64,000 nucleotides of DNA from positions 4,470-68,469 of the forward strand of contig JALEOH010000034.1 in the NCBI GenBank assembly GCA_022766605.1, in the 5' to 3' direction. The notes beneath the pieces were generated by a model. The model was given only the letters and a program-made list of their open reading frames with translations. It was not told the origin of the DNA and searched no databases. Position numbers and translations under genes: made by a program. Positions 39,759 to 44,611 of the stretch are shown one piece after another. This stretch comes from Ezakiella sp. (GTDB lineage Bacteria; Bacillota; Clostridia; Tissierellales; Peptoniphilaceae). The first letter of the stretch is position 1. Each line of letters opens with the position of its first letter.

Positions 39759-41015
39759 ATGAAGAAGATTTATCAAGTGGACGAAAAAGTCCCCGGAAAG
39801 CTATTAGTTCCGCTTTCCATTCAACACACCTTTGCCATGTTTGGTGCATCGGTACTGGTTCCAATAATATTTGGAATTGACCCAGGCATAGTATTATTTA
39901 TGAATGGCATAGGCACACTTTTATTTATCTGGATAACTAAGGGCAAGGCTCCTGCATATCTTGGAAGCTCATTTGCATTCTTAGCTCCAGCGACGGTTAT
40001 TATTTCTCAACAGGGCTTCGAATATGCACAGGGAGCATTTGTATTTGTCGGTATACTCGGTATGATAATTGCAATTTTAATTAAAAAATATAGAACCGAC
40101 TGGATCGATGTCGTGCTACCACCTGCAGCAATGGGCTCTGTTGTAAGCCTTATTGGATTTGAATTAGTCGGACTAACCATAAGAGGTGGAGCAATTGGAG
40201 CGGAGATTCTTACTGAAAATTTCAGCACTGAGCATTTAATAGTTTTTGGGGTAACAGTTTTAGTTGCGGTCTTTGGCTCGATATTATTCAAAGGATTTTT
40301 ATCTACCATTCCAATTCTAGTTGCAATAATAGTTGGATATATAACTGCGGTTTGCCTTGGCATGGTGGACTTTACACCAGTGCTTGAGGCTAAGCTCTTT
40401 AGTCTACCGAAATTTCAAATGGCAAAGTTCTCGGTTGAAGCATGCCTAACAATGCTCCCGGCGACACTTGTCATATTAAGTGAACATATATCGCACCAGG
40501 TGGTAACAAGCAATATAATTGGACGAAACCTAATAGAAGATCCAGGGCTACATCGCTCGATCTTTGCAGATAATTTTTCAACTGCATTATCAGGACTAGT
40601 AGGTGGCGTTCCAACTACGACATATGGAGAAAATATTGGCGTCATGGCAATAACTGGAGTTTATTCGGTGCAAGTAATAGCAGGTGCTGCAATAATTTCT
40701 ATTATAATGGCATTTATTGGACCGCTTTCTGCACTAATCTCAACAATACCAGGAGATGTAATTGGTGGTGTAACCTTTTTATTATATGGAATGATAGGAA
40801 CAAGTGGACTAAGACTACTCGTTGATAAAAAAGTCGACTATTCCGATAGCAGAAATTTAATTTTAACATCGATAATTTTTACGGCTGGTTTAAGTGGACT
40901 AAGTGTAAAACTAGGTGCAATAAATTTATCGGGCATGGTACTTGCCTCGGTAGTTGCAGTAGTATTAAGCCTAAGCTTCCATTTGTTAGACAAACTGGGA
41001 TTGACCAATAAATAG
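39759..41015 (+). CDS. uraA: Uracil permease (NCS2/NAT family)
   Basis: QHTFAMFGA, YLGSSFAF, EHISH, TTYGENIG. Confidence 0.93.
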   Translation: MKKIYQVDEKVPGKLLVPLSIQHTFAMFGASVLVPIIFGIDPGIVLFMNGIGTLLFIWITKGKAPAYLGSSFAFLAPATVIISQQGFEYAQGAFVFVGILGMIIAILIKKYRTDWIDVVLPPAAMGSVVSLIGFELVGLTIRGGAIGAEILTENFSTEHLIVFGVTVLVAVFGSILFKGFLSTIPILVAIIVGYITAVCLGMVDFTPVLEAKLFSLPKFQMAKFSVEACLTMLPATLVILSEHISHQVVTSNIIGRNLIEDPGLHRSIFADNFSTALSGLVGGVPTTTYGENIGVMAITGVYSVQVIAGAAIISIIMAFIGPLSALISTIPGDVIGGVTFLLYGMIGTSGLRLLVDKKVDYSDSRNLILTSIIFTAGLSGLSVKLGAINLSGMVLASVVAVVLSLSFHLLDKLGLTNK

Positions 41016-41062
41016 TAAAGAGCTTCATTTTTGAGTGTTTAATAGAAAAATGATTTTATGTA

Positions 41063-41091
41063 TTGACAAGCCCTTAATACGATGCTATAAT
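41063..41091 (+). promoter_or_regulatory. Consensus sigmaA promoter with extended -10 for precursor/rSAM locus
   Basis: TTGACA (41063-41068), 17 bp, TG-c-TATAAT (41086-41091). Confidence 0.85.
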
Positions 41092-41125
41092 AGGAGTATA
41101 TTACAAGAGAAAGAGAGGAATTGAA

Positions 41126-41251
41126 ATGAAATTTCTAAAAGTGTTGTCTAGATTTTACTTTAAAAGGAACAAATCTATTAGGGTGGAAAGCAGTTATGGT
41201 CCTCCAGTCCGTGCAAGCGCAAATTGGATATGCGGAGCAGGAAGTTGCTAG
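41126..41251 (+). CDS. 41-aa putative RiPP precursor peptide (not in ORF track)
   Basis: GAGG RBS, ATG 41126, TAG 41249-41251; MKFLKVLSRFYFKRNKSIRVESSYGPPVRASANWICGAGSC; directly upstream of rSAM/SPASM gene. Confidence 0.8.
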   Translation: MKFLKVLSRFYFKRNKSIRVESSYGPPVRASANWICGAGSC

Positions 41252-41274
41252 TTTAAGCTAGCAACTTTGCTTTT
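41242..41274 (+). terminator. Stem-loop/attenuator overlapping precursor stop
   Basis: Perfect 10-bp stem AAGTTGCTAG-tttaag-CTAGCAACTT followed by TGCTTTTT. Confidence 0.7.
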
Positions 41275-41295
41275 TAGTAATATTAGATCGAAACT

Positions 41296-42561
41296 ATGCA
41301 AATAAAAAAAGGAACTATTCTCATAAAAAACTCAGATCAGGAATATGTACTATCAAACAACATGTTGAATAGTAAATTATTGTTATCTAGAGATGTTGCG
41401 GATTTGCTGAACGTGATTTTTAGTAAACAAGGGAAGCTGAAAGCAACTGCTAAATTATTACCTGGAGTTAATAAAATAATTAGGAAATTAGAAAAATATC
41501 ATTTTATTACAAGTGAAGAAACTGAAAGTGATTACTATATAAGCATTGATAATTATGATATTGATAGACCGTTATCATCTTTGAGTATAGAGTTAACGGA
41601 TAGATGTAATTTAAAGTGCATACATTGTTATGGATCCTTTGGAAATAATTATCCAAAATCAATGCTTAATTTTTATAATATAAGAACTATATTAGAAAAA
41701 TTAGTAAAATTGAATTGCGGTAGTATAAATTTGACAGGGGGAGAGTGCACCATCCACAAGGATTTTAATAGGATTGCCAAATTAATACTCGAAATGGGTT
41801 TTAATCTAGGAATTATGACTAATGGCTATAAAAAAGATTACTTTATTGACTTCTTGAATGACGTTAATGAATATAATTTTATTGTAAAAGTTAGCCTAGA
41901 CGGTACTGAAGAAATTCATAATCAAATAAGAGGAGATAACTCTTCATACAAGAATGCAATCGCACTTATAGATGACATCTATAAAAGAGATAATATAAAA
42001 CTATATATATCGTCAACATTGATGAAATCAAATTATAGGCAGTTTAGAGAACTAATTTCTTTTGTGGAAGATAGATACCCTAAATGTATTCATTCTCTAG
42101 ACCTTGTTCTGCCATGTGGAAATGCTATTTTGGATTCTTCAGTTGCTTTCAGCATTGAAGAACTTGAAAAAATTGTTAATGACTTTCCAGAGATTTTTAT
42201 AGGAGAAAGATCAATTATACGAGTCAATAAACCAAGATGTACCGGAGGGGTTTCACAAGCAACGCTTACCTCAAAAGGAGATTTAAAAATCTGTAATTGT
42301 GCTACAGACAGTAGATTTTATTTTCGCGGAAATGTTTTGACTGACGATTTAATAAACATATGGAATAATCCTGGTATAAATATTGAAAAATACAGAAATG
42401 AGAAAGCTTTAAAAGGTCAAAATTGTATAACTTGTTCAAAATATTCGACATGTTTTGCCACTGACTGTAGGGTATCCGCTTTTTTGTATACTGGAAATGA
42501 TGAGCTTTGCTCTCCGATAACTTTTTATTGTTCAAGGAATAATGATGAAGATAGTATTTAA
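41296..42561 (+). CDS. Radical SAM/SPASM peptide maturase
   Basis: CNLKCIHC (CX3CX2C), LTGGE, VSLDG; SPASM C-x12-G-x4-C...C-x2-C-x5-C-x4-C...C; ~90-aa N-terminal segment consistent with an RRE. Confidence 0.9.
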   Translation: MQIKKGTILIKNSDQEYVLSNNMLNSKLLLSRDVADLLNVIFSKQGKLKATAKLLPGVNKIIRKLEKYHFITSEETESDYYISIDNYDIDRPLSSLSIELTDRCNLKCIHCYGSFGNNYPKSMLNFYNIRTILEKLVKLNCGSINLTGGECTIHKDFNRIAKLILEMGFNLGIMTNGYKKDYFIDFLNDVNEYNFIVKVSLDGTEEIHNQIRGDNSSYKNAIALIDDIYKRDNIKLYISSTLMKSNYRQFRELISFVEDRYPKCIHSLDLVLPCGNAILDSSVAFSIEELEKIVNDFPEIFIGERSIIRVNKPRCTGGVSQATLTSKGDLKICNCATDSRFYFRGNVLTDDLINIWNNPGINIEKYRNEKALKGQNCITCSKYSTCFATDCRVSAFLYTGNDELCSPITFYCSRNNDEDSI

Positions 42562-44137
42562 ACATTTTAATGACGCCGTTAAAAGATTTCCCAAGCATTT
42601 TATTAGGACATTTTTTCTATCTATACTTGCTGCGATAGTTAGCATAGCTATTCCAATTGCAATGAGGCAGTTGATAGAGGGTGATTTTAGCTCTAGGGAT
42701 ATAGTGGTAAATATTATTATTTTATCGGCTATGATATTATTGTCGATTATTATCGCCATTAAAAAGACCAAGACCATGGATGAATTCGGTGGGGAATATC
42801 TAAAAGATATTTTAAAGAGGGTTGAGCACATTCTATACAATACCAATTATGAAAGAGTTGATGAACTAAATAAAAATGGGCTGAGTCATACATTATTTTC
42901 GGATGCCATGACTATTATGAGTACGGTTGGACTGATGATACCATCATTTATTAGTTCGGTTATAATAGTTTTATTTTTACTGGCAATTAGTTTTTATTTT
43001 AATCCATTAATAGCTCTAATTTCTATGATTGCAATTTTAGCTGGAGTTGCTATCTCATTTTTTGCAAGAAAGAAGATGTATAATACTTCTAAAGGGACCA
43101 ATCGTAAACTAAAAATAGTCCATGATTTTACTAATGAGTTGACCAATACTACTTTCGATGCAAGACATAATAGACTCGGTGTATATTATGCAAAAAAGAC
43201 TGACAGCATAATAGATGATTTCATAAAGACTGCTAAAGAAGAGGATGTGACGAGAGAATTATATAATGAATTGATAATAAACTACAATCTAATCATTCAA
43301 GTTTTAGTTTCCGTCTTGTTGTCCATTCCGTTTATAAATAATTCAATATCAAATGCATTATTTTTTATCATGGTATTTAATCTGCTGATCACTCAAGGGT
43401 CTAATATAGAAATATATTTGGGTCAAATAATCTCATCGCTTGTCAGCTTTAACAATATAGAAAAAATATTGAAGTTACCGATGGATAGTGCAAAAGAAGA
43501 GATAAATAGCATTGATGAGATATCGATTAGAGATCTCAGCTTTAATCATGGGGAGGACAAATTATTCGATGGACTTAATATCGATTTTAAAAAAGGTGAT
43601 ACCATATTGATAGAAGGAGCTAATGGATCGGGGAAAAGCACTTTTTTAAAGCTCTTATTAAAATACTACGAATATGATGGTAGCATAAAATACAATGGGC
43701 TGGAACTTAGGGAAATTAAAAGGGAAGCTCTATATAAAAAGATGCTATATATCAATCAAAAAGAGATAATATTAAATGAAGACATTGACGATTTTATAAA
43801 TATTACACTGGATGAAAATATATCTCAATTAGAAGTCCATAAATTTATGGATAGCTATGATTTTAAAAAGGATTATAAAGAAAAGCTGGAATATGACAAG
43901 CTCTCAGGTGGTGAGATAAAAAAATTACTAATCGCAAAACTCTTTTTTGCAAGTCCAAAGAGGGATGTAATACTAATTGATGAAATAGAAGCGGGTCTAG
44001 ATGATGCATCATTAGCTAAATTAAGCTTTTTTTTAAATAAGATTGCAGGCACTGAAGAAAAAATTATATTTATAATCTCTCACGGAGATAAATTAAAAGT
44101 CAATTGTACGAAAAGGCTAAGACTAAGTCATGAATAA
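42542..44137 (+). CDS. ABC exporter (TMD+NBD), no C39 peptidase domain
   Basis: GANGSGKST, LSGGEIKK, ILIDE, ISHG; overlaps rSAM 3' end by 20 nt. Confidence 0.88.
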   Translation: MMKIVFKHFNDAVKRFPKHFIRTFFLSILAAIVSIAIPIAMRQLIEGDFSSRDIVVNIIILSAMILLSIIIAIKKTKTMDEFGGEYLKDILKRVEHILYNTNYERVDELNKNGLSHTLFSDAMTIMSTVGLMIPSFISSVIIVLFLLAISFYFNPLIALISMIAILAGVAISFFARKKMYNTSKGTNRKLKIVHDFTNELTNTTFDARHNRLGVYYAKKTDSIIDDFIKTAKEEDVTRELYNELIINYNLIIQVLVSVLLSIPFINNSISNALFFIMVFNLLITQGSNIEIYLGQIISSLVSFNNIEKILKLPMDSAKEEINSIDEISIRDLSFNHGEDKLFDGLNIDFKKGDTILIEGANGSGKSTFLKLLLKYYEYDGSIKYNGLELREIKREALYKKMLYINQKEIILNEDIDDFINITLDENISQLEVHKFMDSYDFKKDYKEKLEYDKLSGGEIKKLLIAKLFFASPKRDVILIDEIEAGLDDASLAKLSFFLNKIAGTEEKIIFIISHGDKLKVNCTKRLRLSHE

Positions 44138-44187
44138 ATTTTTTTATTTCATACTAATATTTAGATGAGAATAATTTATAAAAAAAT

Positions 44188-44219
44188 GAGTCATATATGC
44201 TATATGGCTCTGTTTTTTT
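44188..44219 (+). terminator. Terminator after RiPP-locus exporter
   Basis: GAGTCATAT-atgct-ATATGGCTC followed by TGTTTTTTT. Confidence 0.75.
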
Positions 44220-44254
44220 GCTATAATATGTGGTAAAATAGCTTTAGGTGAATT

Positions 44255-44611
44255 ATGACTAGATTGGATTTTTTTACTATATTAATAATTGCCCTTCTTT
44301 CTTTATCTGCTATATTTATGATGCCCAAAAATAAGGGAGAGTTAATCGAGGTTAGAGTAGATGGTAAGCTTATTTATAGTGCAGAATTTTCTAGGGATGT
44401 TTATACGAAAGTCATAGAGTCTAAATATGGTCATAATACTATTGAAATTGGCCCTGATTATGTAAGGGTAATTGAGGCGAGTTGCCCAAATAAATTGGAT
44501 ATTAAGCAAGGCAAGATAAGCTATAGTGGAGAGAGTATTATTTGCATTCCAAATCACTTGTCGATTACTATAGTTTCTGGCGATAGGGATTATGATGTGA
44601 TTGTACGATGA
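44255..44611 (+). CDS. NusG domain II-containing protein
   Basis: N-terminal TM; ASCPNKLDIKQGKIS...IICIPNHL. Confidence 0.8.
   Translation: MTRLDFFTILIIALLSLSAIFMMPKNKGELIEVRVDGKLIYSAEFSRDVYTKVIESKYGHNTIEIGPDYVRVIEASCPNKLDIKQGKISYSGESIICIPNHLSITIVSGDRDYDVIVR

Follow-up and report, generated by a model that had tools for sequence, protein, structure and literature searches.

A predicted three-gene radical-SAM RiPP operon in an Ezakiella genome and its rare peptide family with a W-x-C-x4-C C-terminus

The operon and its insertion site

The window, which is the whole stretch of 64,000 nucleotides of Ezakiella sp. DNA analysed here, carries a compact gene module that is flanked by uraA on one side and by a gene for a NusG_II-domain protein on the other. 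The module consists of a small ORF, a radical-SAM gene and an ABC gene, and the features assigned to it are as follows.

41016..44254, no strand assigned: inserted 3.2-kb segment between uraA and the NusG_II gene, placed by the empty site in relatives and by GC
41063..41091, + strand: promoter TTGACA-17 nt-TATAAT with an extended -10 TG, 12/12 consensus
41113..41119, + strand: Shine-Dalgarno GAGAGGA, 6 nt 5' of the precursor ATG, read from the sequence
41126..41251, + strand: precursor peptide gene, 41 aa, MKFLKVLSRFYFKRNKSIRVESSYGPPVRASANWICGAGSC, with a basic and hydrophobic leader and a C-terminal core
41216..41248, + strand: predicted 11-residue core SANWICGAGSC, from column counts anchored on W-x-C and the precursor alignment
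41241..41278, + strand: stem-loop across the precursor stop codon with a T-rich tail, 12-bp stem
41296..42561, + strand: radical-SAM/SPASM peptide maturase, 421 aa, Pfam Radical_SAM and SPASM
42542..44137, + strand: ABC exporter, permease and ATPase fused, 531 aa, lacking a C39 peptidase domain, Pfam ABC_membrane and ABC_tran
44188..44220, + strand: operon-closing terminator, 10-bp stem then a T run, from a sequence scan

The promoter is the sole perfect sigma-70 site within 40800-44400. The stem-loop at the precursor stop codon, whose hairpin proper spans 41241-41268, has a minimum free energy of -21.2 kcal/mol (z = -3.77) and is predicted to be a leaky terminator or a stabiliser, which in the operon reading would make it an attenuating hairpin. 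No recognisable Shine-Dalgarno sequence precedes the ATG of the radical-SAM gene (41282-41295), which lies 3' of the hairpin, and the Shine-Dalgarno sequence of the precursor is strong. This arrangement would fit a high ratio of precursor to enzyme. The last 20 nt of the radical-SAM gene are shared with the start of the exporter gene. The exporter is taken to be without a C39 leader peptidase domain because it aligns only to positions 148-662 of the peptidase-containing exporter model, and no leader protease was found in the three-gene cluster.

In three genomes of the same genus, the NusG_II gene lies about 100 nt after uraA and the module is missing, and since the two flanking genes are adjacent there, the 3.2-kb module is read as an insertion. 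Its GC content is 30.0%, compared with 35.1% for the window. The intergenic DNA of the relatives aligns too poorly for a base-exact insertion junction; no direct or inverted repeats were found at the module borders, and no mobility genes were found at the segment. The enzyme family was not found in 60 relatives (9 of the same genus, 27 of the same family and 24 of the same order) or in 398 further genomes of the same class, and among the species-representative genomes searched it occurs only in the window's own genome. Near-identical copies of the window enzyme are present in at least four public contigs, and a 90%-identity cluster representative (P0001) differs from it at a single residue, residue 39 (LLLYRD versus LLLSRD). 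Wherever a homologous locus extends far enough, precursor, radical-SAM gene and ABC gene follow one another in this order. The surroundings of these modules vary: one sits beside MobA/MobL and a ParE toxin with a DUF6290 antitoxin (L084 1-1279), one beside a gene for a TraG-like coupling protein (L178 6115-7287), and one between a cation ATPase gene and infC. These unrelated surroundings fit a small mobile cassette, and horizontal acquisition of a three-gene RiPP operon appears to be the best explanation for the module at this site.

The precursor family and its conserved C-terminus

The C-terminus reported in an earlier sequence-only reading of this DNA, A-S-A-N-W-I-C-G-A-G-S-C with two Cys, one Trp and a final Cys, is read directly from the ORF, and its residue numbers (N33, W34, C36, G37, A38 and C41) match the translation. 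The coordinates 41216-41251 that it assigned to this stretch do cover S31 to C41 and the stop codon, but the 12-mer that it quoted starts from A30 and thus at 41213.

Next to homologues of the enzyme in assemblies and metagenomes, 27 further small ORFs were found, which gives 28 precursors including that of the window. The 27 homologous ORFs are always directly upstream of the radical-SAM gene and on the same strand. As for their C-termini, 24 of the 28 (the window's and 23 others) are of one type, here called W-type, with the pattern [G/A]-[E/Q/D/S]-x-[N/A/G/T]-W-x-C-[G]-x-[G/E/D]-[S/D/C/N]-C. The equivalents of Trp34, Cys36 and Cys41 are invariant in all 24 W-type precursors, and both Cys are invariant in all 28. 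Because of this invariance, Trp34, Cys36 and Cys41 are read as the functional residues, and the earlier proposal that the window peptide ends in a RiPP precursor core is supported. In contrast to these fixed positions, residue 33 varies among the 24 W-type precursors (Asn 11, Ala 9, Gly 2, Thr 2), with at least four changes of state along the enzyme tree, in which the outgroups sit on long branches and the family root is unreliable.

Four residues before the Trp, at position 30, there is a near-constant Gly or Ala. The alignment suggests that this residue may be the leader cleavage site, of the double-glycine type, and the product would then be 11 residues long. In 27 of the 28 precursors the peptide ends with the last Cys; in the remaining one, the W-type L107 (2283-2417), a 16-residue Pro-rich follower, FVPDPVPVPTTPAPQK, comes after the otherwise C-terminal Cys. 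In another W-type precursor (L097 216-332) there are six residues (GGGGEF) between the two Cys instead of four, and the size of the ring or loop would then not be strictly fixed. A further ORF (L099 153-308) has the same leader as L094 2269-2424, with a frame shift after GLPN through which the W-x-C...C end is lost; it is probably either an assembly error or a decayed copy.

The four precursors outside the W-type have no Trp (L100/L101 2039-2143, L104 2279-2395, L105 2031-2156 and L111 485-598) and end in C-K-[S/G]-[V/A]-G-G-[G/H]-[Y/G]-C. Leader, Cys pair, Gly-rich loop and exporter are all retained at these loci. On the tree, the corresponding enzymes group in one well-supported clade (SH-aLRT 99) that is nested in the family as sister to L103/L107, and therefore the Trp was lost once. 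The first Cys of the Trp-less pair lies at -8 from the C-terminus, which is the N/A/G/T position of the W-type (residue 33), while position -5, which is Cys in the W-type, is Val or Ala. This exchange suggests that donor and acceptor have swapped between positions 33 and 36 in the Trp-less clade. Three of the four Trp-less precursors have a third Cys 5-7 residues further upstream.

NCBIfam models matched nothing specific on the 27 aligned precursors. The leader of one precursor, MRKIFAKLRRPALMLKRQ (L090 177-293), gave E = 0.01 and 15.5 bits, against a cutoff of 45, with the NCBIfam model for the streptococcal "SSH motif RaS-RiPP peptide", a weak match that may indicate distant kinship among leaders. 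The core motifs WQCGG, NWVCG, NWICG, CKSVGGG and AWQCG were not found in the searchable literature library. Judged from these comparisons, the precursors constitute a new, rare family of radical-SAM RiPPs that is defined by a W-x-C-x4-C C-terminus.

The alternative that the small ORF arose by chance and that the enzyme acts on some other substrate can draw on the simplicity of the pattern, which arises several times per genome by chance. When W.C....C-stop was scanned in six frames over the whole 1.33-Mb genome, 5 clean sites were found against about 1 expected (7 raw sites, with 2 that cross internal stop codons left out), so the motif alone is not beyond chance. We count the precursor gene as real not for the bare motif but for where it lies and how it is conserved: a promoter, a ribosome-binding site and a hairpin of its own accompany the window copy, and the 28 homologous small ORFs conserve both leader and C-terminus and are always found directly upstream of the enzyme gene. 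A chance origin is hence extremely improbable and was rejected on the conservation across the 28 precursors; the comparison confirms the ORF at 41126-41251 as a genuine precursor peptide gene.

The radical-SAM enzyme

The 421-aa enzyme scores 58.7 bits with Pfam Radical_SAM and 23.4 bits with SPASM. A word-indexed search of 5.8 billion proteins returned about 24 clusters at 34-50% identity, after which the scores drop from 242 to 89 bits. In a full profile search of 1.84 billion representatives at 50% identity, about 45 clusters, including fragments, lie above about 180 bits, and below that value the matches belong to the general radical-SAM continuum. A scan of genome contigs with the window enzyme as single sequence found only generic radical-SAM proteins at 22-38% identity and no members of the family, the CNLKCIHC pattern having swamped the search. 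These searches indicate an enzyme family that is small, isolated, rare and uncharacterised.

No curated NCBIfam maturase model came near its cutoff for the window enzyme, as the following scores show.

TIGR04133, the best NCBIfam match: 95 bits, cutoff 425
SkfB: 72.8 bits, cutoff 300
WgkB: 59 bits, cutoff 650
StsB: 53.1 bits, cutoff 625

The suggestion that the enzyme belongs to a known maturase family is therefore not supported, the best curated model being so far below its cutoff. The N-terminal 97 residues gave no NCBIfam match, and the C-terminal half matched generic SPASM models only. Models for triceptide maturases of the XyeB, GrrM and FxsB type are not among the best 25 of the 62 NCBIfam matches.

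In the enzyme alignment, the radical-SAM cysteines C104-x3-C108-x2-C111 are invariant. The SPASM part has seven conserved Cys by an alignment-based count (C315, C333, C377, C380, C386, C391 and C403/409), and no conserved eighth Cys was found upstream of these in the enzyme alignment. The substrate Cys in the CteB structure of Grove et al. from 2017 (PDB 5WGG/5WHY) reportedly ligates an open site on auxiliary cluster I, and by analogy the seven-Cys signature would be consistent with an open iron site as in CteB. The AlphaFold2 model of the enzyme (pLDDT 88, pTM 0.90) builds residues 7-67 from three strands and three helices, arranged like those of a RiPP recognition element (RRE). The N-terminal domain in this model resembles an RRE; the Pfam PqqD model did not match it in 24 family members.

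When the model was compared with the PDB by Foldseek, the following structures ranked at the top.

CteB (5WHY/5WGG): E 9e-15, full-length alignment
SkfB: E 1e-12
SuiB: E 2e-12, full-length alignment

As these values show, SuiB, which forms C-C cross-links, is nearly as close in fold as CteB. With the sequence profile, SkfB was found at 95 bits and CteB at 30 bits, and SuiB was not detected. By sequence profile, the closest solved enzymes thus appear to be the thioether formers SkfB and CteB, with the C-C cross-linker SuiB not among them. However, similarity of fold or profile does not tell whether such an enzyme forms thioethers, makes C-C or C-O cross-links, epimerises residues or catalyses some other radical-SAM reaction.

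Another idea is that the enzyme forms no cross-link through Cys and instead carries out a different reaction, such as epimerisation, an MftC-like oxidative decarboxylation of the C-terminal Cys or the formation of formylglycine, with the Cys pair left as an ordinary disulfide. The models for MftC, NirJ, AhbC/D and anSME-type enzymes score about level with those for peptide cross-linkers, and a last Cys at the C-terminus in nearly every precursor would suit a reaction at that end. Against this, the 16-residue follower in one member means that a free carboxylate is not universal, and an RRE-like domain together with a leader-core layout suits a peptide macrocyclase. We consider such chemistry unlikely.

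Candidate cross-links and related systems

The reading that we prefer, and to which we give about an even chance of being correct, is that the radical-SAM enzyme macrocyclises the peptide through Cys-derived thioethers, with the two invariant Cys as sulfur donors. It is favoured because there are two invariant Cys in a short Gly-rich core, because the enzyme has an RRE/radical-SAM/SPASM architecture, because its nearest solved relatives form thioethers, and because pairs of small unnested sactionine rings are already known, namely in the products of the streptosactin and QmpB pathways (PMC9389541). In this mechanism, the leader of about 30 basic and hydrophobic residues would dock on the RRE-like N-terminal domain, and the enzyme would use 5'-deoxyadenosyl radical chemistry together with an auxiliary Fe-S cluster that has a free coordination site. 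Each invariant Cys would have its sulfur bonded to a carbon atom of some residue close by, so that one or two small thioether rings akin to those of type-2 sactipeptides or ranthipeptides would result. A link to the alpha-carbon (sactionine) would be the most general fit, and it is preferred because the acceptor positions vary and include Gly. The most likely rings would run from residue 33 to Cys36 and from a residue of the Gly-rich loop to Cys41, with the invariant Trp inside the first ring as a determinant of recognition or activity. The ABC protein would then export the product, and an unlinked protease would remove the leader, possibly after the Gly or Ala four residues before the Trp. 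The acceptor residues are not nameable from conservation, there being no candidate position with a conserved side chain and Gly occurring at several. An absolutely conserved Trp is also unusual for a residue that is left unmodified, which counts against thioether macrocyclisation of this kind.

The module shares its layout of a short precursor, one radical-SAM/SPASM enzyme and one ABC exporter with the type-2 sactipeptides (streptosactin/GggB and QmpB) and with the CteB and SkfB systems, CteB and SkfB being also the nearest solved structures to the window enzyme. As in those systems, the Cys donors would lie in a short Gly-rich core in which small unnested rings are possible, and the features of sacti- and ranthipeptide systems present here are the CxxxCxxC motif, the SPASM domain and the conserved core Cys. 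In contrast to those systems, the window core has an invariant Trp and a C-terminal Cys, the module has no quorum-sensing regulator, the exporter has no peptidase domain, and the similarity to sacti- and ranthipeptide maturases is confined to the generic radical-SAM core, as the SkfB and StsB scores far below cutoff indicate.

A more specific proposal, made in the sequence-only reading, was that the sulfur of Cys36 is linked to the beta-carbon of Asn33, as in the NxxC peptides matured by NxxcB in Streptococcus orisratti and others, with Cys41 closing a second ring. The window peptide and 10 relatives do have N-W-x-C, and the simple three-gene layout is the same. The Asn is most often replaced by Ala, which is, along with Gln and Asp, among the acceptors that NxxcB reportedly tolerates (PMC9389541); in addition, the Trp-less clade has a Cys in place of residue 33, as though the two partners of the link had been exchanged. 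However, Asn is present in fewer than half of the W-type precursors, residue 33 switched repeatedly on the enzyme tree, and Gly, which has no beta-carbon, stands there in two of the 24, so neither an NxxC reading of the family nor an obligatory beta-carbon thioether at this position is supported. An Rgg/SHP pair, present in NxxC systems, is absent next to the module, as the sequence-only reading had already pointed out from neighbours that we identify as uraA and the NusG_II-domain gene. The models for streptococcal RaS-RiPP maturases matched the enzyme at the generic radical-SAM level only, and the NCBIfam models and the homologue list gave no demonstrable orthology with NxxcB. The hosts differ as well, being streptococci for NxxcB and a small-genome anaerobic coccus of the class Clostridia here. 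Chemistry of the NxxcB kind is accordingly quite improbable for the family. The earlier proposal had been tied to conservation of N33 and W34; N33 is not conserved, which is half of what was to refute it, and W34 is conserved in the W-type. Its two-ring topology, with one ring between residue 33 and Cys36 and a second closed by Cys41, is possible and a reasonable guess, and the suggested swap of donor and acceptor in the Trp-less clade would lend mild support to a ring between residues 33 and 36. Since NxxcB reportedly accepts other residues than Asn, a beta-link is also possible in the members with Asn, Ala or Thr.

Many cores of the family carry C-G-G or C-G-x, which recalls the CGG and CGx subfamilies of streptococcal RaS-RiPPs, uncharacterised and with no shp gene identified (PMC13361665), in a resemblance by motif name only. 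The 120 best homologues of the enzyme include no Streptococcus protein. In the AviCamCys pathway, the C-terminal Cys is decarboxylated, and the radical-SAM/SPASM enzyme SycC attaches it to the beta-carbon of the Asn that precedes it by three residues (PMC10989515). A LanD-like decarboxylase is required there, and the window cluster has none. Unlike in the SycC substrate, the residue three before the C-terminal Cys in the present family is Ala, Gly, Pro, Asn, His, Asp or Lys, and one relative has a follower peptide after its last Cys.

The invariance of the Trp raises the question of whether the Trp itself is modified. Its indole could be linked to a Cys sulfur, as in tryptathionine, or to a side-chain carbon, as in streptide, in WprB products or in triceptides, with the Cys serving as partner, disulfide or cluster ligand. 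The Trp is found in all 24 W-type precursors, always two residues before the Cys, and one of the best fold matches, SuiB, cross-links Lys to Trp. A nested clade without any Trp, however, retains leader, Cys pair, Gly-rich loop and exporter, the sequence profile finds SkfB and CteB and not SuiB, and no radical-SAM Cys-Trp link was found in the searchable literature. We regard Trp-centred chemistry as rather unlikely. As for triceptides, the window core does have an aromatic residue followed by two others (W-I-C), but Cys takes the third place, there are no repeats of the motif and the Trp is lost in one clade, and a triceptide-type Trp cyclophane, also raised in the sequence-only reading, is not supported as the core chemistry of the family, the Trp-less clade having kept the two-Cys architecture. 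The narrower possibility of a Trp-Cys (tryptathionine-like) or other indole cross-link combined with a thioether at the C-terminal Cys is improbable. If it were true, the product would be an 11-mer with two rings, a scaffold for which no bacterial radical-SAM pathway is yet known, and the Trp-less clade would represent a later change of chemistry.

Whichever bond is formed, the family has no counterpart in curated models or in the searchable literature, and its comparison as a whole corrects an NxxC assignment that was plausible but over-specific. Radical-SAM RiPPs of host-associated anaerobes have repeatedly been a source of new bond types and of narrow-spectrum bioactive peptides. The present family is compact, with three genes and a core about 11 residues long, and it is rare and mobile, features that recommend it as an inexpensive and well-defined target for reconstitution in a heterologous host. 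Its natural variation is a ready mutational scan, in which the Trp and the two Cys are fixed in the W-type and residue 33 is free to be Asn, Ala, Gly or Thr, and in which the invariant Trp may act either as a determinant of recognition or activity or as a participant in the chemistry.
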